Positions 5,435 through 60,227 of a stretch of DNA of 64,000 nucleotides are shown in pieces. The first letter of the stretch is position 1. Each line of letters starts with the position of its first letter. The notes beneath the pieces are model-generated. The model was not told where the DNA came from. It saw only the letters and a program-made list of their open reading frames with translations, and did not search any database. Origin of the DNA: a virus (Duplodnaviria > Caudoviricetes); IMG/VR virus record IMGVR_UViG_3300028582_000237, positions 2,641-66,640 of that record; one strand, given 5' to 3'. Position numbers and translations under genes: made by a program.

Positions 5435-5992
5435 TTATTGTTCCATGTTTAAGAATGTAATAATATTTTCGGCTATTTCTTCTGTTAATCCATCTATCCC
5501 ATCTGTCAGGAATAAATGATCTGATAAATGAACCATGTCAGGATCATCATCTATAATCACAAACCTCCCGACTGGCGTAATTAACCAATTCTTAGCATAT
5601 GACTGGCTGGCTGCTTTATTTCTTTTTTGAATCCATTCATCAATTTCAAATCCCCTGGGCCTGCTGTGGTTTTCTGCGTCAACTAATTTGGGTGTAACTC
5701 CTATTACTATTAATTCTGGATATCCCAGGGCTGTAAAAAACATTTCCCATATCATACAGGAAGAGCATCCAATTCTCCATGTTGAAGAGATTACTATTTT
5801 GGCGCCAGTCTTTTTAACAATATTACTCAATGGTTCTAAATGTATTTTATGAGGCATCATCGCGCATAATTCATTATTTTTATGTAACAAAGCACTTTTC
5901 TCTGAGTTTAAAACTCCATCGATGTCTAGGAATATTATTTTATCTGGTTTTAACATTTTTCGTATATAATTATTTCTGTTTCCCAGTGACAT
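5435..5992 (-). CDS. HAD-superfamily phosphatase (Swiss-Army-knife RNA-repair-like HAD)
   Basis: IIFLDIDGVLNS motif I, AKIVISSTWR, RG.EI.EW, FVIIDDD motif IV. Confidence 0.85.
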   Translation of the reverse strand: MSLGNRNNYIRKMLKPDKIIFLDIDGVLNSEKSALLHKNNELCAMMPHKIHLEPLSNIVKKTGAKIVISSTWRIGCSSCMIWEMFFTALGYPELIVIGVTPKLVDAENHSRPRGFEIDEWIQKRNKAASQSYAKNWLITPVGRFVIIDDDPDMVHLSDHLFLTDGIDGLTEEIAENIITFLNMEQ

Positions 5993-6260
5993 ATAATTCA
6001 GCTAATTTCTTGGAATGAAGAAATGCTCTTTCTACCATATTTTCACGAATAGTTTCTTTATAAATGAATACTCCAAAGTGATCCAGTGTCTTATATGACG
6101 AATTCCTGATATCGCCCTGTTTGATCTTTTTCATCATTTCAGTTAATATCCTAGCTGTATTCGAATTATAATCCGAATTGAGATGCAAACATCTTTTTTT
6201 GTTAAGCAGTAATAAATAATACATCTGCCGGCTATTTAATTTTTTGATGTTTCTTCTCAT
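5970..6260 (-). CDS. Hypothetical protein
   Basis: 96-aa ORF overlapping both neighbours, co-oriented in the operon. Confidence 0.5.
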   Translation of the reverse strand: MRRNIKKLNSRQMYYLLLLNKKRCLHLNSDYNSNTARILTEMMKKIKQGDIRNSSYKTLDHFGVFIYKETIRENMVERAFLHSKKLAELYVTGKQK

Positions 6261-21979: not shown

Positions 21980-22021
21980 TATTTAGCAAATTCCCGGCAA
22001 TATTAACGTGTGAAAAAGTGA
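21980..22021 (-). promoter_or_regulatory. Putative late promoter/activator box, copy 2
   Basis: TCACTTTTTCACAC-N15-AATTT-GC-TAAATA, 68 nt upstream of the portal ATG, the same geometry as copy 1; partly overlaps an imperfect 10-bp inverted repeat (21971-21997). Confidence 0.65.
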
Positions 22022-51920: not shown

Positions 51921-53561
51921 TTAATTGATCTGGCTTTGTAACCAGTTTTTTCTTTTCTTTAATTCGGGTAATGTTTCATCATCAATTCGTTTGCCTCCCT
52001 GCCTGATCCAATCTTTGTGGGCAACATCCCAATCAATAGAACCATTGCCTTTTTGTTTTGCATATGTTTTTGCAAGGGTATTTATTTCTTCTCTTATAAT
52101 TTTTTTCTGTTCAAACAATGGTGGCGGTGCTGTATTAGTTATTATTTTAGCCCCGCTTGTTACTTTTGTTGCCACTGCTACGGGCAGGTTAAACATGCTT
52201 GCTACTTTATCATCAAAGGATATTTCAAACTGGTGGCTGCCCGTCACTTCACTTGCTACAGCTTCGAATACTTTTTTATTCCTGTCACCTTTTGGTGTTG
52301 GATCCTCACCCTCATAATCACTTTCTTTTTTCTCTTTTGTCCCTTTTTCTTTTACTTTATCCAGGGCATGTTCCCGCTCTGTCTCTATTTGGGTAGCAAA
52401 GCTTAATAATACCGGGTCCATTGGCATGAAAAGAAAAGCATCCTGAGCATCTAAATGGGCCAGAACTCTTACAAAGCGTCCAACAAATTGCCTGAAATAA
52501 AGTTCACTGCGAATGTTTGTTGCATAAACACCAACCCGTAACCGCGGTATATCAACTCCTTCAGAGATCATTTTGCAGGATACTATCCACTTACGAGCAT
52601 TATCCCTGAATTCCTTAATCTTTCTGGAGGATTGCTTATCATCAGATATAACTATCTCAGGATATTCACCGGTTATGTCTTCAACAAGATCCTGAATTCT
52701 TCTTGCGTGTTCCTGATCGATAGCAGTAATCAATCCCCCTGCATCTGAATGGAATTCTTCTGTTCTTATTTGGCTTAATTTTTTATCAGCAGCTGTAATA
52801 AGTTCTCGCATAAAATCTCCGTCCGTATCAAGAGCGGTTCTTAATCTTTCGCTGCTTTGAGTATCGTCAAGAGCATCATCAAAAGTGTGAATATGAGTTT
52901 CTCCGTCTACTCTCCACTCCATTTTGCCATTGTATGCTGGGAAATAGACCATACGGCAAACACCGTCAATTATAGCTTGTGTATAGGTGTAAGTGTAATC
53001 TGCCTGAGAAACTCCATTTACATATTTGATAAAAGGAATCATATTCTTATCACTGCGGAAGGCTGTCCCAGATAAACATAATTTAAATATGGCTTCTTCA
53101 AATGCATATAATACAGCATCACCCCAAACTTTGTTTTCTCCGAGGTGGTGTATCTCGTCAATAATTACCAGAGTTTTTGAACTCTTTGTTAAATTTGCAT
53201 GAACTGAAGGGTTCGCTCCAATTGCAGCATAAGTAGTCACAATTCCATGATATTCACTGCTTTCCCTTCCCATATTGTTTTCAAAATAAGGATCAAGATT
53301 GATTCCATAATAAGCTGCATCAATGGCCCATTGTTTACAAAGATGATCTGTTGGAACTAAGATGGCCAATCTTTTTGCGAAACCAGTAAATAATGCATTA
53401 TGCGCGACCCGCATTCCAAAACGTGTTTTTCCGGATCCTGGAACCCCTTCACACATGAATCTATCAAAATCGACTGCTTGCCTCTGTTTTGCTTTTGTCG
53501 CTTCAAATGCTTCACCCTGCCAGTTTCTAAGTGGGTGATTCCAAAATCCTAAATTTTTCAT
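51921..53561 (-). CDS. SF2 DEAD/DEAH-like helicase
   Basis: LR.WQ, GVPGSGKT, IIDEIHH, LSGTAFRSD, M.SEGVDIP.L, RQFVGR.VR. Confidence 0.93.
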   Translation of the reverse strand: MKNLGFWNHPLRNWQGEAFEATKAKQRQAVDFDRFMCEGVPGSGKTRFGMRVAHNALFTGFAKRLAILVPTDHLCKQWAIDAAYYGINLDPYFENNMGRESSEYHGIVTTYAAIGANPSVHANLTKSSKTLVIIDEIHHLGENKVWGDAVLYAFEEAIFKLCLSGTAFRSDKNMIPFIKYVNGVSQADYTYTYTQAIIDGVCRMVYFPAYNGKMEWRVDGETHIHTFDDALDDTQSSERLRTALDTDGDFMRELITAADKKLSQIRTEEFHSDAGGLITAIDQEHARRIQDLVEDITGEYPEIVISDDKQSSRKIKEFRDNARKWIVSCKMISEGVDIPRLRVGVYATNIRSELYFRQFVGRFVRVLAHLDAQDAFLFMPMDPVLLSFATQIETEREHALDKVKEKGTKEKKESDYEGEDPTPKGDRNKKVFEAVASEVTGSHQFEISFDDKVASMFNLPVAVATKVTSGAKIITNTAPPPLFEQKKIIREEINTLAKTYAKQKGNGSIDWDVAHKDWIRQGGKRIDDETLPELKKRKNWLQSQIN

Positions 53562-53577
53562 GTATAGTGTTCAGCCT

Positions 53578-53922
53578 TTATATGTTAACTTTATTAAAAT
53601 CAAATACTTCTATCAATATGTCCCCATCTTTTACAATCACCGGTGCAATATTAAAAAGTCCATATGCAGCATAATTACACGGCTTTGTTCCTTTATACCA
53701 ATCCCCTCCAGAATATCTGCCTATACATTCTGTATAGGCAGAATTAGGTGTTGCCCCCTTATCTTTATAAGGCTTAAAATCTGATACTTTTTGAATGTTT
53801 CCGCATCCTGGACATACAAATTCCCATCCCATAACATCTTCTCCAAACAAATCCTTTCCTTTCTGTAACCACTCTTCTTTACTAATTTTTCTTTTTTCGA
53901 TTGTTTCTTTAGTCTTGTTCAT
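53578..53922 (-). CDS. VVA0879-like protein
   Basis: W.FVCP.CG..Q...DF......AY.ECIGR.......CN.AAYGL. Confidence 0.75.
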   Translation of the reverse strand: MNKTKETIEKRKISKEEWLQKGKDLFGEDVMGWEFVCPGCGNIQKVSDFKPYKDKGATPNSAYTECIGRYSGGDWYKGTKPCNYAAYGLFNIAPVIVKDGDILIEVFDFNKVNI

Positions 53923-54161
53923 ACAACTTCCTGTTTAAATTCTTCTCTTAATCTGGCAGATAATGAATCCCACGTTTCTGACTTCATTTGAATTCCATTA
54001 ATATCAGGCATTATTTCTAAGTGAAGAAAAGTATTGCAATTAGGGCAGCTGGTATGTCCAACATTAAAACCCATCTCCATCAATATGGATGGTTCTATAG
54101 TAAAATCGGAATTACATACTGCGCATCTGCAGTTATATGAAGTTAGTAAGTTGGTTTTCAT
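53919..54161 (-). CDS. Small zinc-ribbon protein
   Basis: C.C..C...CP.C. Confidence 0.55.
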   Translation of the reverse strand: MKTNLLTSYNCRCAVCNSDFTIEPSILMEMGFNVGHTSCPNCNTFLHLEIMPDINGIQMKSETWDSLSARLREEFKQEVV

Positions 54162-55414
54162 AAACTTACTCCTTCTTCTTCTATTGCAATTCTGTCTTTC
54201 ATACGTCCCTCATGTTGAAAAGGCAATTCTGAAAATTCAATTTCCCCAGACTCTATTACAGAAATTTTCTTTTTAATTGAATTGGTAATTTCAATATTAA
54301 CTACCTTACCATATTCAACTGTTTCTTCAGTGAGGTTATTTGCCTTCATGATGTCCTCAGACCTGCTTTCTCTCTGTACTGGTACCACAATTGGAACTAT
54401 TTTAGCATCCATGCCGATAAGGTTTTTAAGTTCATCTATTTTATCTTCAGTAACCAATGCTCTGTCTGTTTCCGAAACAGTATAATCAAATTTAACTTCA
54501 GCGTTGGCTGGGATACCTGCTGTATCAAGAACAAATCTTCCATCCTTAAACTCGGTTTTAATATTTACCATCGGTCTGGCTGCTTTTAATGGCACTTTCT
54601 TAACATCTATCCCGGTTCCGGTAAATTGAACAACATTAAAATATTTCTGTTCTATTTCGCCAAAATTCTTATTATAGAAACTTCCGGAATACATCATATT
54701 AGCAGTAATTTCCTGCGGAAGATGTATATGCCCAAGTGCGTAATAATCGCAGTTTGCGCGCATGAGGCTATGTGGGGATATAATAATATCCTGTCCTAAA
54801 ACCGGCTGTCCGTTCTGCATTCTTGCGCCCTGGACATTTCCGTGGAAGCCAAGAACTTTAGGACAATTAAAATGATTGTTCGTCATGCCAAAAAGGTCCA
54901 TCATTTTATCAAATAATGAACAAAAATTATTGTTATTTGTGTCGATGTTCGTATCGGTTATAATGTTTGATTTTGTAGGATATGGCATCATGTTAATCAG
55001 TATTTCAAAATCATTTGAAGTAAATTCTGATAAGTTTGGCTTTCTTAGTAGATCTTCCGGGCCTTTACCATCCCCCGGGAAAGCAAGTATTACAGGGTAT
55101 TCATAACTATAAATATTGGGAGATATCTGGTGCAGCATTGATATTGAACCTGTCCTGTCATGCGACTCATTTCCTTTTACAATAACAATCGCTTTTACAT
55201 GCAGGGCTAATTTTTTGAAATATTCATACGCTAAGTCTGCACCGCTTCCTTTCTCGTATGCCTGTTTTTCTTCAAAAACATCCCCCGGCACTACTATATA
55301 ATCAATATTGTTTTCTTGAACATGCTCTACTAACTGATCAAGGCTTTTTCTTGCCTTTTCCTTTTTGTCTGGCCTGGAATCTAAATGTAGATCGGCTGCA
55401 TGTAATATTTGCAC
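54158..55414 (-). CDS. sbcD: SbcD/Mre11-like metallophosphoesterase nuclease
   Basis: LHAADLHL, GDVF, GNESHD, GFHG, YYALGHIH..Q, YSGS.....FGE...K. Confidence 0.92.
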   Translation of the reverse strand: MQILHAADLHLDSRPDKKEKARKSLDQLVEHVQENNIDYIVVPGDVFEEKQAYEKGSGADLAYEYFKKLALHVKAIVIVKGNESHDRTGSISMLHQISPNIYSYEYPVILAFPGDGKGPEDLLRKPNLSEFTSNDFEILINMMPYPTKSNIITDTNIDTNNNNFCSLFDKMMDLFGMTNNHFNCPKVLGFHGNVQGARMQNGQPVLGQDIIISPHSLMRANCDYYALGHIHLPQEITANMMYSGSFYNKNFGEIEQKYFNVVQFTGTGIDVKKVPLKAARPMVNIKTEFKDGRFVLDTAGIPANAEVKFDYTVSETDRALVTEDKIDELKNLIGMDAKIVPIVVPVQRESRSEDIMKANNLTEETVEYGKVVNIEITNSIKKKISVIESGEIEFSELPFQHEGRMKDRIAIEEEGVSL

Positions 55415-56923: not shown

Positions 56924-57280
56924 CTATGCTCCTATTTTTGACGATATTGTTTTTAACCTGCGAACATTAGACGCTTTATTAAGTATTTTAAGTGCATACT
57001 GTTGCATATCTGAAATGGGTTCATTATGTTCTGCTTTTTTCATTTTTGTTTTATCAAAAATTGCCATTACTTCCAGTTCGTTATAAATGCGCGTATCTGA
57101 ACCCGGCCTTATACTCGGAATTATGAAACCTCCTTCAACATATTTTTTATAAAATGTACTTGCATCCTTCAAACCCATTATATCAGCTGCTTCTGATTCC
57201 GAAACTGCAAGCCTTTTCCCTCCCTGCAGTAATGTGAGCTTTTTCTTTCTTTTATCTTCTTTCTCAGGCATAACTCTCAC
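56924..57280 (-). CDS. Excisionase/AlpA-like winged-HTH protein
   Basis: LAVSESEAADIMGL..STFYK......I.P......RIY...EV. Confidence 0.65.
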   Translation of the reverse strand: MRVMPEKEDKRKKKLTLLQGGKRLAVSESEAADIMGLKDASTFYKKYVEGGFIIPSIRPGSDTRIYNELEVMAIFDKTKMKKAEHNEPISDMQQYALKILNKASNVRRLKTISSKIGA

Positions 57281-57863
57281 TCATTTTATTAATCATTTCA
57301 ATGGTATTTCTACAACCAGTTTTGTTTAGTATATTTTTCCTATGATTTTCTACAGTGAAAGGACTTATATATAGCTTCTTAGCTATTTCTGTAGAACTAT
57401 AACCTGATTTTACCAAATTCATTACCTGCTTTTCTCTGGTAGTTAAATCATTTTTGCTTGCTGCTCTTAAAGACTTAACTACATACGCACGCGTATCAAC
57501 TTCTTTATCCTCTGCAAGGCTATCTATTATGTCAATCAGACTATCAATATTTTCTTTACTTTTCCATAGGTATGAGTCTACCCCGTCTATTAACATATCT
57601 ACCAGGTATTTTTCTTCATGGTTAGTCATGGCAACAATTGGTATTTCATTATTAGTTCTGCGTATATCCCAGATTATCTCTGACCCATCTGTTCCTGGCA
57701 TCCTTATATCGGTTAATATTAAGTCTGGATTATTATTAACATACTGCTCATATAGTTCATCCCCAGTGGCTGCTTCAGATACCTGATAGCCATGCTTCTG
57801 TAGTAATACCTTTATTCCCTGACGGAGTAAAGTTTCATCATCTGCTATTAGTATTTTTTTCAT
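57264..57863 (-). CDS. NarL/LuxR-family response regulator (REC plus LuxR HTH)
   Basis: ILIADD...RQG, DLILTDIRMPG.DG (phospho-acceptor Asp), AMT, YL.K; LT.RE..V..L...GYS..EIA.KL.IS..TV..HRKNI..K. Confidence 0.95.
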   Translation of the reverse strand: MKKILIADDETLLRQGIKVLLQKHGYQVSEAATGDELYEQYVNNNPDLILTDIRMPGTDGSEIIWDIRRTNNEIPIVAMTNHEEKYLVDMLIDGVDSYLWKSKENIDSLIDIIDSLAEDKEVDTRAYVVKSLRAASKNDLTTREKQVMNLVKSGYSSTEIAKKLYISPFTVENHRKNILNKTGCRNTIEMINKMSESYA

Positions 57864-58101
57864 TTAATAATTTCTTGATTTCTTGAATTTCGGTTTTAAG
57901 TGCTTCTACTTCTTTTTCTTTGTGCATCTCCAACATCATCTTAGAATCTCTCAACTCATTCCTAACATCATGCAGTGTATCAATTACATCTTTTTTTCTT
58001 TCACGTTCTTTATAGAAAAGAATAAGGGCTGCTATAAAAAGTAAAGTTAAAACTAATACTATCCCGCTTGCGCATATGTAAAACGCGTTATCATGCTCCA
58101 T
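57838..58101 (-). CDS. Single-TM coiled-coil protein (resembles the N-terminus of a histidine kinase without kinase domains)
   Basis: One 22-residue hydrophobic helix, then YKERERKK and heptads; overlaps both neighbours. Confidence 0.6.
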   Translation of the reverse strand: MEHDNAFYICASGIVLVLTLLFIAALILFYKERERKKDVIDTLHDVRNELRDSKMMLEMHKEKEVEALKTEIQEIKKLLNEKNTNSR

Positions 58102-58676
58102 GCTGTTACTCCCAGCAGTATATTGTTTGTTATATTACCTGCACTGAATATGATCATTGCTGCCCCAGCATGTTCTCTTATTATCAGGAATGATAATAAG
58201 GCAAGTATTGAATATTCCATTATTGCTGATACGAATGCTATTTTATAGAACCTGCAGTTCTTTTTAAAAACTGTCTTAAATAGAACTGCTATACATACAA
58301 TCAGAAGAACACTGGCCTCGCAAATAGTCAAAGCATCATCAAAAGTGTTAATATTCCCATAAATGAATTCAGCACTTATTACAGGGATAATAAACAGATA
58401 AACAATCTTTGACCTTTTGGGTAGCCAGTTATTCAGTATCATTAAAATCAGTCCAAGTTCAACTATTGTATAAATATGGTTTAACAAATAATTATCTACT
58501 AAATTCAGAGCCATTACCAATCCTGCTGCTTGTACTATACTACTTGTTATAATGAGTGTGGCAAATATTCGTTGATCATAACCTGTCCTTTGCCGCTGAG
58601 TCAAATATATTACCACACCCACCAGAGGTAAAACAATCGAAAAAACACTAATCCATATGTACCACGGTATATTCAC
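58059..58676 (-). CDS. Seven-TM integral membrane protein
   Basis: About seven hydrophobic segments; DNYLLNHIYTIVE motif; GTG start directly after the upstream stop. Confidence 0.75.
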   Translation of the reverse strand: MNIPWYIWISVFSIVLPLVGVVIYLTQRQRTGYDQRIFATLIITSSIVQAAGLVMALNLVDNYLLNHIYTIVELGLILMILNNWLPKRSKIVYLFIIPVISAEFIYGNINTFDDALTICEASVLLIVCIAVLFKTVFKKNCRFYKIAFVSAIMEYSILALLSFLIIREHAGAAMIIFSAGNITNNILLGVTAWSMITRFTYAQAG

Positions 58677-59087
58677 TTACTTGCCTGATACCTGGTAGCA
58701 ACAATAAATGCCTTTTTCCAGATATATTACCGGATGTAGATTTTCGTCATAAATAGTGATAACAACACATTCTTTTTTATCAAGATTGGCCCCCATTTCA
58801 AAGAGAACAAATCCTGCCCCGGCTGTTTTGGCCGCTGCTTCCACCTGATCCGCAGAAAATGCTTCCCCGCTTTCAAGGGGAATTAATGTATTTTCTTTTT
58901 TGTACATTTCCCTGTTTTTCAGAAGCTGCTCTTTCATCTCATAAGTTATTTCATGATTGACTGATTTCAGCTTTTCAATAATAACTTTGTCATATGTTTT
59001 TTCTGCCTTTGCCTTATCTGCTGCAGATGACGGCGGAATAAATAGGGACACGATAATTACTATCAGAAAATACCTTAGTAGTTTCAT
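58677..59087 (-). CDS. Secreted small protein (Sec signal peptide), candidate ligand/sensor
   Basis: MKLLRYFLIVIIVSLFIPPSSA-A signal peptide; C-terminal YCCY; SD GGA upstream. Confidence 0.7.
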   Translation of the reverse strand: MKLLRYFLIVIIVSLFIPPSSAADKAKAEKTYDKVIIEKLKSVNHEITYEMKEQLLKNREMYKKENTLIPLESGEAFSADQVEAAAKTAGAGFVLFEMGANLDKKECVVITIYDENLHPVIYLEKGIYCCYQVSGK

Positions 59088-59249
59088 AACTTTTCCTTTT
59101 TTTAATAGTGTTCGGCTTTTAACTGTTAATTATAAAAACCGGCAGCCTTTAACCGGCTTCTAAAACCCTGTATTATTTGCAATAAAAGATAAGCTGCTTT
59201 GATAAGATCACTGTATTGCTTTTTCATGTGCCCTTCACTTTTAAGAACT

Positions 59250-59471
59250 TTATTTATGACTTGGTTTTTCTTTACTCTTAGCTGCCAGACAGTGCCCTAT
59301 TATTTTCATGTATATTTCTTTCTCCTTCTCATCCTCAGCACACTCCAAACAAACATCCATAATCTCTTTCAAGGTCCCCCCGCAATTTTCATATGTTTCA
59401 ACAATATTTCTAAAAGCATTGATAATTGGCTCTTCAGTTTCTATTTGCTGCAATAATAAAGCTTCAGTCAT
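59250..59471 (-). CDS. Hypothetical small protein
   Basis: 73-aa ORF downstream of the cro-like gene, SD GGGGA. Confidence 0.5.
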   Translation of the reverse strand: MTEALLLQQIETEEPIINAFRNIVETYENCGGTLKEIMDVCLECAEDEKEKEIYMKIIGHCLAAKSKEKPSHK

Positions 59472-59574: not shown

Positions 59575-59745
59575 TTACTTGATTCTATTTTTGAAAGCTT
59601 CAATACCTAAAGGAATTATTTGAACCAACAAATCTTTAATTGAGGTATCAAGGTCAATAGCAAGTTTAGCAATTTCATTGTGATGGTCTTTACGGACCTC
59701 GGCTTTTTTGAATTCCTGTTCCTGGGGGTTTTCTTTTGTTTTCAT
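59575..59745 (-). CDS. Cro-position small regulator, ribbon-helix-helix-like
   Basis: From ATG 59745: MKTKENPQEQEFKKAEVRKDHHNEIAKLAIDLDTSIKDLLVQIIPLGIEAFK; divergent from the XRE repressor and downstream of a consensus promoter. Confidence 0.6.
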   Translation of the reverse strand: MKTKENPQEQEFKKAEVRKDHHNEIAKLAIDLDTSIKDLLVQIIPLGIEAFKNRIK

Positions 59746-59790
59746 TTTTGCTTTTTTTAATTTGTAACTAAGTAAAAAAGTAACATGGGA

Positions 59791-59819
59791 AATATACGCA
59801 ATCTGCGTATTCATGTCAA
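59791..59819 (-). promoter_or_regulatory. Early lytic promoter (PR-like) with embedded operator
   Basis: TTGACA-N17-TATATT on the minus strand; perfect inverted repeat ATACGCA-atc-TGCGTAT (59794-59810) overlapping the spacer and -10. Confidence 0.8.
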
Positions 59820-59832
59820 GCAAAATATTCAC

Positions 59833-59844
59833 ATTATGCGTAAT
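59833..59844. promoter_or_regulatory. Second operator-like site
   Basis: Near-palindrome ATTATGCGTAAT containing the TGCGTA half-site, 11 nt before the repressor ATG. Confidence 0.45.
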
Positions 59845-59855
59845 TTGTTTTATAT

Positions 59856-60227
59856 ATGTCATTAGGCAATAGAATTCAGTTTGTAAGAGAGAATATTCTC
59901 AAAATTTCCAGTCAAATAGAATTTGCTAAATTATTGAATGTTGCTGGTGCTTCTACTGTTAGTGGATGGGAGAACGATGAAAGAAGGCCTAGCTATGAGA
60001 TTTTAATTAGAATTTCTGTCCTGGGTAAGGTTACTATTGATTGGTTATTAAAGGGAGATCCAGAGCCGGCTATGGTCGGAGAACCGGCACCAGAATATAA
60101 GGTGAGAGAACTTGAAGAAAAAGTCAACAAACTAACTGAGGAGAATGATAAGCTCCGGTCTCAGCTTGGGGATATTGACATTTTACTGCAGGTTACTGAC
60201 CAAATAAAGAAAAAACTTAAAAGATAA
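59856..60227 (+). CDS. XRE-family (CI-like) repressor without a peptidase domain
   Basis: LGNRI...R......SQ.EFA..L.......VS.WE...R.P....L..I......DWLL.G; C-terminal V.EP..EY plus coiled coil; no SD visible (possibly leaderless). Confidence 0.9.
   Translation: MSLGNRIQFVRENILKISSQIEFAKLLNVAGASTVSGWENDERRPSYEILIRISVLGKVTIDWLLKGDPEPAMVGEPAPEYKVRELEEKVNKLTEENDKLRSQLGDIDILLQVTDQIKKKLKR

Follow-up and report, generated by a model that had tools for sequence, protein, structure and literature searches.

The 64,000 bp stretch of Caudoviricetes DNA analysed here (the window; positions 2,641 to 66,640 of the 66,640 bp IMG/VR provirus record IMGVR_UViG_3300028582_000237) carries on its minus strand, at 57264–59087, a cassette of four genes that is very probably, by origin and homology, derived from a signalling module of the Bacteroidota that is as yet undescribed, being a version that is carried by a phage and has no kinase. 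In gene order these encode a 136 amino acid (aa) protein with a Sec signal (58677–59087), a 205-aa seven-helix membrane protein that is the presumed sensor subunit (58059–58676), an 87-aa single-pass membrane protein that stands where the bacterial module has its kinase and is called the stub below (57838–58101), and a 199-aa NarL/LuxR-type response regulator with a receiver and a GerE helix-turn-helix (HTH) domain (57264–57863). The open reading frame (ORF) list bears out the order, strand and positions given for these four genes by a first-pass annotation made from the sequence alone. The GTG start of the 205-aa gene directly follows the TAA of the 136-aa gene, and the 87-aa ORF, for which gene calls exist on 8 contigs, shares 43 nt with the 205-aa gene and 26 nt with the regulator gene. 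The phage is a temperate one of Ignavibacteria-type hosts, and its regulator would probably respond to a membrane signal with no kinase of its own. The full explanation that we favour, in which this kinase-less copy of the module has a membrane stub that controls the regulator, is one towards which we lean rather than one that we hold firmly.

The bacterial module was delineated with a profile of the seven-transmembrane (7TM) family to which the 205-aa protein belongs, which was run on 401 genomes sampled across the phylum and 401 genomes sampled in the class of two further kinase-less loci, L001 and L102, respectively (below). Matches are present in 31 of the 401 genomes of the first sample (8%) and 66 of the 401 of the second (16%), and about 85 chromosomal neighbourhoods were mapped in the Bacteroidota, mostly in class Ignavibacteria. 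Their recurrent order starts with a small protein of a family with a C-P-P-x-C motif (CPPxC protein), continues with one to three 7TM genes and a single-pass kinase, and in many loci ends with a NarL-type regulator; the order of small protein, 7TM protein, membrane-anchored kinase and regulator that the first-pass annotation had given for the Fibrobacteres–Chlorobi–Bacteroidetes group is thus both real and common. The kinases have one transmembrane (TM) helix and almost no extracytoplasmic part, and are either 260–290 aa HisKA_3 + HATPase_c proteins or longer, mostly PAS-containing ones; among those scanned with Pfam, two short forms are HisKA_3 + HATPase_c and two long forms are PAS + HisKA + HATPase_c, with or without REC, and the best NCBIfam matches of the short forms are the C-terminal halves of MctS and UhpB. 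Since these kinases have no sensing part of their own, the 7TM protein is the likelier sensor; the 7TM subunit presumably provides the input of the bare kinase, and the module looks like a sensor kinase whose receptor part has become a separate subunit. The window has the 7TM gene, the CPPxC-family protein upstream of it and a regulator that groups with those of the module, and the single-pass kinase is absent; because the 87-aa stub replaces that kinase, the window is a kinase-less variant and not a member of the full module.

Two other kinds of arrangement were seen among the chromosomal loci. Some modules contain tandem paralogs, either two or three 7TM genes or two CPPxC genes (L110 6286–7633; L117 5884–8358; L111 2217–4727; L190 4894–5777). 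In L137, L133, L107, L105 and L221 the small protein and the 7TM protein are accompanied by a truncated kinase (164 aa, L137 4495–4989) or by none, and these may be degenerate or two-gene forms.

The absence of a kinase from the phage, claimed earlier for the window, extends to the whole 66.6 kbp provirus record, in which no HATPase_c, HisKA or HisKA_3 domain was found, and the six frames of the window hold no kinase remnant or frameshift. The kinase-less arrangement recurs in L001, a 24.5 kbp contig of a Bacteroidetes metagenome-assembled genome (MAG) that was reached via the regulator and carries a syntenic phage. The two phages have in common the integrase, a recombinase-like gene, a nuclease, a helicase and smaller early genes, among which the helicase (ResIII/DEAD; E = 2e-178) and the metallophosphoesterase nuclease (E = 3e-121) are by far the best conserved (window 51921–55414, L001 11675–15478) and would thus suit as markers for further phages of the group. 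In the same place L001 has genes for a 133-aa signal protein, a 206-aa 7TM protein, a 64-aa single-pass protein and a 197-aa regulator, followed by the same next gene as in the window; its regulator is 37–39% identical to that of the window, and the contig has no kinase (no HATPase_c). The third example, L102, is a chromosomal locus in the MAG of an “uncultured Ignavibacteriales” that is flanked by ordinary metabolic genes and otherwise has nothing in common with the phage. Among all the loci examined, a mini-ORF replaces the kinase only in these three (87 aa in the window, 64 aa in L001 and 70 aa in L102), their regulators are about 30–39% identical, and the stub ORF is kept in each lineage. 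The first-pass annotation had regarded a recent frameshift in a decaying cassette, or homologs that are scattered, as among the ways in which its reading might fail; the six frames are free of kinase remnants, the homologs do occur together in L001 and in the chromosomal loci, and the conservation of the unit in a second, diverged phage means that the cassette is neither decaying nor recently frameshifted. Judged by these comparisons, the four genes are maintained as a unit across deep divergence, and the kinase-less form is rare, not decaying.

Searches for additional kinase-less relatives added nothing to these three. A profile search for further stubs returned only the three known ones, a scan with the 372-aa early protein of the phage (below) found no kin phages, GenBank phages had no blastn match to the region, and DNA-pattern scans for the motif T-x-H-E-E-x-[YH]-L-[VI]-[DE] of the regulator clade (below) found only L001 (also as L157 and L170) and L102 (as L168).

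The 199-aa regulator matches Response_reg (PF00072) with 87.8 bits (cut-off 30.2) and GerE (PF00196) with 56.2 bits (cut-off 23.5), and its best NCBIfam matches are FixJ, NarL and similar models, all under their equivalog cut-offs. The description of its receiver as intact proved correct, in that D8/D9, D52, T80 and K101 align with the canonical module regulators, and the phosphorylation residues are intact in the regulators of all three kinase-less loci. Maximum-likelihood analysis of 45 module regulators gives a tree that has the proteins of the window and of L001 as sisters (support 97/84) and joins them with that of L102 in a 99/98 clade, which is nested among regulators from kinase-bearing loci; the tree is unrooted, and the long branches of the kinase-less clade make attraction a caveat on this placement. 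The tree points to a single loss of the kinase core as the simplest history and is compatible with a loss before or after capture by a phage. The earlier proposal that the phage captured the module and lost the kinase stands as regards a derivative without the kinase core; its sequence of events, capture and then loss, is one of the two that the tree allows, and the L102 chromosome has the same form. As to the DNA target of the regulator, a putative late-promoter motif (2031–2072 and 21980–22021) was considered and rejected; it has no palindrome, and no link to the regulator can be claimed.

What, then, is the stub that occupies the place of the kinase? It has a TM helix at about residues 8–30, followed by a charged cytoplasmic helix that contains H44-D45-x-x-N48. 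The cytoplasmic tails of the stubs from the window, L001 and L102 (the latter two being counterparts by position) have as invariant residues only R33, H44, D45 and N48 (window numbering) and are otherwise unalike; the local sequences are LHDVRNE, IHDLKNE and AHDLKNK, and the H-box of the module kinases reads AHDLKNLL or AHDLNNIL in the long forms and (E/D)LHD(E/D) in the short forms. In HisKA proteins H-E/D-x-x-T/N is the kinase/phosphatase motif, the acid serving the kinase and the T/N the phosphatase activity, and ExxN (CheX) and DxxxQ (CheZ, NarX) play the same phosphatase part (PMC3510030). H44, D45 and N48 fit this pattern of a histidine, an adjacent acid and an amide or hydroxyl residue at +4, and they do so invariantly in the three stubs. 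When a local hidden Markov model (HMM) of the dimerization and histidine phosphotransfer (DHp) domain was built from the module's own HisKA_3 kinases, residues 31–81 of the 87-aa stub (51 residues) aligned weakly across both of its helices (E ~9e-4 for one sequence), and the 57-residue tail of this stub is long enough for a possible two-helix DHp hairpin.

Several observations weigh against kinship of the stub with a kinase. The local HMM gives the 87-aa protein just 5.7 bits, the L001 and L102 stubs align with it at the 5-residue motif alone, and their tails (30–36 residues) are too short for a two-helix hairpin. Pfam HisKA (PF00512) and HisKA_3 (PF07730) match none of the three stubs, neither family is listed for the 87-aa protein at E ≤ 0.1, and neither is found in the six frames of the record at E ≤ 10. 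The histidine lies 7–14 residues from the membrane in the stubs and about 45–50 residues from it in real kinases, and, there being only three independent kinase-less loci, the conservation of H-D-x-x-N rests on three sequences. An ESM Atlas search with the stub gave a top score of 0.81, to holin-like small membrane proteins, which is noise level. In view of the motif and the local alignment on one side and these points on the other, we judge the chances to be about even that the stub is a kinase remnant that keeps a functional H-box helix.

The weak profile support is also what speaks for an inert remnant, that is, a stub that is a leftover or a chance ORF beside a regulator that acts alone as an orphan. 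We consider this the least probable of the explanations weighed here, since the stub is kept in three lineages with its TM helix and invariant H-D-x-x-N and overlaps both of its neighbours, and since no kinase remnant or frameshift is present and the small protein and the 7TM protein are intact as well.

The main rival to our favoured explanation is a form of the earlier suggestion that the phage borrows or jams a host kinase: the stub helix would pair with the DHp domain or the TM helix of a host sensor kinase, and the phage 7TM protein would drive or block that kinase, which in turn would phosphorylate the regulator. The position of the stub in place of the kinase, with an H-box-like helix, suits such a role, small single-pass controllers of kinases are known in MgrB and SafA (PMC8404706), and the genomes of L001 and L102 each encode 5–6 other HisKA_3 kinases with which a stub might pair. 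However, the L001 MAG and the L102 genome each contain a single match to the 7TM family, which is the kinase-less locus itself, with no second copy (MAGs may be incomplete), so that no copy of the module with a kinase was detected in them as a partner; in addition, the same form is present in a chromosome, where jamming one's own host makes little sense. Borrowing or jamming is weakened by the lack of a second 7TM copy in these two genomes, and we rate it as unlikely.

The AlphaFold2 (AF2) model of the 7TM protein has seven membrane helices (predicted local distance difference test score (pLDDT) 92, predicted template modelling score (pTM) 0.88), and a lysine plus arginine bias of 8 versus 1 predicts an N-out/C-in topology. 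A polar motif of the family, N-L-W-L-x-H-I-Y-T-x-x-E (window residues 62–73), has N62 and E73 at least 90% conserved; N62, H67 and E73 lie inside helix 3, the loops are very short on both faces, and the motif could be a ligand, ion or catalytic site. The family is isolated in the databases: phmmer with the 205-aa protein against 1.8 billion representatives found two relatives only, the protein and its family (36 members tested) have no Pfam, NCBIfam or PDB sequence match and no match to AgrB, and comparison of the model with the PDB gave nothing specific, only generic bundles like those of G protein-coupled receptors or rhodopsin at TM-scores of 0.5–0.6. Close relatives of the 136-aa and 7TM proteins were sought by word-indexed searches and, with the 7TM protein as query, by pattern scans of contigs from genomes, viruses and metagenomes; all of these returned the window's own sequences or none. 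The possibility that the 7TM protein and the stub are the halves of a split eight-TM protein was rejected; both are predicted to be N-out/C-in and therefore they are not one continuous chain.

The 136-aa protein begins with a classical Sec signal (K2, R5, a 12-residue hydrophobic core and a cleavage point between SSA and AD) and ends in YCCYQVSGK. A family HMM that was built without it recognizes it at E = 7e-6 and its L001 counterpart at 1e-11; in the alignment YCCY takes the place of the C-P-P-x-C motif in the window protein, and the motif is kept in the L001 protein. Members of the family are about 100–250 aa long, and 88 of 100 have C-P-x(1-2)-C near the C-terminus, most commonly as C-P-P-[FYW]-C and often followed by an acidic tail. 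The N-terminus is hydrophobic (signal peptide, lipobox or anchor) in 38 of the 100, and the other 62 have no hydrophobic segment there (chromosomal loci L101–L145 and L183–L222). The AF2 model of the 136-aa protein (pLDDT 84) is an alpha + beta fold with a core of two helices and three strands. Neither this protein nor its family has a match in Pfam, NCBIfam or PDB sequences, and fold searches with the model found no convincing PDB neighbour (best Foldseek E 0.2, best VIA Z 3.9). The mixture of exported and apparently cytoplasmic members in one family counts against the explanation that we favour, and none of the models considered here explains it. A flip in 7TM topology that follows the location of the small protein was also rejected, as 7TM proteins show the same lysine plus arginine bias beside partners with a hydrophobic N-terminus and beside partners without one.

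These properties bear most directly on a self-produced signal, as in quorum sensing or the arbitrium-like circuit that was proposed at first, in which the released signal would be the 136-aa protein, whole or as a C-terminal fragment, and the 7TM protein would be its receptor or processing enzyme. The order of small protein, polytopic membrane protein, kinase and regulator parallels AgrBDCA and ComQXPA, and the HisKA_3 kinase and NarL regulator families are those of ComP and ComA; the conserved cysteine motif near the C-terminus, often with an acidic tail, and the Sec signals of the phage proteins are also in keeping with this idea. Nonetheless, we think it very unlikely. Rather than being a short propeptide, the small protein has at its core a domain of about 110 residues whose fold is predicted with confidence, its cysteine motif is nearly universal and shows no pherotype diversification (and is lost from the window copy), and most family members lack the N-terminal hydrophobic segment (above). 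The host is presumably diderm, and its outer membrane would keep a periplasmic protein of 110 residues from reaching other cells; no match to the AgrB, AimR or ComQ families was found, the cassette has no TPR match and its output domain is GerE, not LytTR; and, as the module kinases lack a sensing part, the 7TM protein is the likelier sensor. In view of the folded small protein, its undiversified motif and the N-termini of its relatives, the arbitrium-like proposal is thus poorly supported.

In the explanation that we favour, a kinase-less module copy whose stub controls the regulator, the cassette would act as follows. After infection or induction, the 7TM protein and the periplasmic 136-aa protein would sense a cue in the membrane or envelope, and within the membrane the stub would receive the signal from the 7TM protein, in the way that the kinase would in bacteria. 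The stub has no ATP-binding domain and therefore does not phosphorylate itself; it might instead bind the receiver as a DHp helix does, and so tether the regulator, dephosphorylate it, or both. The phosphate on the regulator would come from a non-cognate host (HisKA_3) kinase or from acetyl phosphate, and free phosphorylated regulator would bind DNA and adjust transcription of the phage (or host). We put forward the tether/phosphatase step only tentatively.

At the right end of the window the integrase, recombinase-like, MuF-like, lipoprotein and CI genes are on the plus strand, and nearly all remaining genes are on the minus strand. The CI-type repressor gene (59856–60227, plus strand) diverges from a promoter-like site on the minus strand, TTGACA-17-TATATT (59791–59819; 11 of 12 matches, by consensus match only), that points away from CI and is a candidate early promoter of the operon that bears the cassette. 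The minus-strand order after this site is the cro-position gene (59575–59748), first in the leftward early operon, a 73-aa ORF (59250–59471), the four cassette genes, a 118-aa gene and then further early genes, which encode the 372-aa protein, a metallophosphoesterase (SbcD-like, PF00149) and the helicase. The cro-position ORF is listed as 95 aa (59575–59862), and because the promoter-like site falls inside this longer ORF the true start is probably the internal ATG at 59748, giving a product of 57 aa, which has no family match. Lying among early genes downstream of a CI-divergent promoter-like site, the cassette belongs to the early lytic-side operon and not to the repressor–integrase block.

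The 118-aa gene (56924–57271 as listed, minus strand, with a likely ATG at 57271) overlaps the end of the cassette, its ATG sharing nucleotides with the regulator stop (ATGCCTGA). It was at first labelled excisionase-like, a label that has no backing from Pfam, PHROG or NCBIfam, in which no match was found at E ≤ 0.1, excisionase/HTH_17-type families included. A homolog follows the regulator in the L001 phage too (E = 1e-9), and it is a positional homolog only. Between the 73-aa ORF and the cassette there is a weak hairpin on the minus strand at about 59125–59155 (AAGCCGG, a 10-nt loop and CCGGTTT, followed by TTATAA), for which a terminator scan made no call.

This setting also bears on whether the cassette is lysogenic-conversion cargo, expressed from the prophage and rewiring host transcription to the lysogen's benefit. 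The presence of the same kinase-less form in a chromosome (L102) would fit such a use, and the hairpin ahead of the cassette makes separate expression conceivable. But the cassette is read from the lytic-side strand in both phages, where it comes after the cro-position gene and ahead of the genes for early recombination and replication; its end also overlaps the early gene that follows, and a promoter scan found no conspicuous promoter upstream of it. We therefore regard conversion cargo as rather improbable.

The repressors of the two phages differ in type. The window CI has an HTH and a leucine-zipper-like coiled coil, with Pfam matches to HTH_3 and Phage_CI_repr only and no peptidase, and the L001 CI (5494–6120, minus strand) has an HTH and a Peptidase_S24 domain (E = 2e-17) beside the same cassette. 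The earlier observation that the CI lacks a peptidase thus holds for the window, whereas the deduction that induction must then have some other input is undercut by L001, whose S24-type CI next to the same cassette means that the cassette is not simply a substitute for the SOS input.

How does this arrangement compare with signalling systems already described? Among the designs nearest to the module is UhpABC (and also LiaFSR and BceRS-AB), in which a separate multi-pass membrane protein feeds the kinase, and where, as in the module, a HisKA_3 kinase is paired with a NarL-family regulator. UhpC is a homolog of 12-TM transporters, and UhpB has a multi-TM domain of its own. The module differs from UhpABC in its unrelated, compact 7TM sensor, its one-helix kinase and the added CPPxC protein, and the phage copy in addition lacks the kinase core. 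Among phages, phiCDHM1 of Clostridioides difficile is likewise a temperate phage with an incomplete bacterial signalling operon, agrD-agrB-agrC (PMC6127314), and it is the mirror image of the window phage, having kept the kinase without the regulator where the window phage has done the reverse, with unrelated protein families (no AgrB and no LytTR in the window cassette). VqmA of phage VP882 and other receptors of host signals that phages encode are comparable in that a sensor and transcription factor of the phage is proposed to make its programme depend on an external cue (PMC7790227, PMC10426928), but VqmA is a cytoplasmic one-component receptor of a known autoinducer, whereas in the window we propose a membrane complex and a phosphorylatable receiver.

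The stub has its own parallels. MgrB and SafA are, like it, membrane proteins of about 50–90 residues within a two-component pathway (PMC8404706, PMC12648545); these act on a kinase that is intact and have no H-box, whereas the stub replaces the kinase and keeps H-D-x-x-N. The H-box phosphatase motifs of HisKA proteins, CheX, CheZ and NarX have an acid and an amide one helical turn apart, beside the histidine, as does H44-D45-x-x-N48 (PMC3510030); they are located in a two-helix DHp dimer or a soluble phosphatase, whereas the stub motif is close to the membrane (above) and in no recognisable domain. None of these designs has the architecture of the window cassette, in which the new elements are a retained sensor side with a stub that replaces the kinase, and the undescribed module itself. 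It is conceivable, though we would call it doubtful at present, that the 64–87 aa proteins represent a new minimal two-component part, in which a membrane-anchored single H-box helix and a 7TM receptor would control a regulator with no ATP-binding domain, and that temperate phages of the Ignavibacteria and Bacteroidota use it to make their early programme, or the choice between lysis and lysogeny, respond to a cue from the envelope or from outside the cell.

A common module of the Ignavibacteria and other Bacteroidota thus holds two protein families, the 7TM and CPPxC proteins, that have no Pfam, NCBIfam or PDB match, and temperate phages have taken up a rare version of it, where all that is left in place of the kinase is a membrane helix with an H-box-like motif, and have given it a fixed place in the early operon. 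If our explanation is correct, the stub would show that a receiver can be controlled without a cognate kinase, and through the cassette a signal from the membrane, independent of SOS, would feed into the development of phages whose hosts are a little-studied group.

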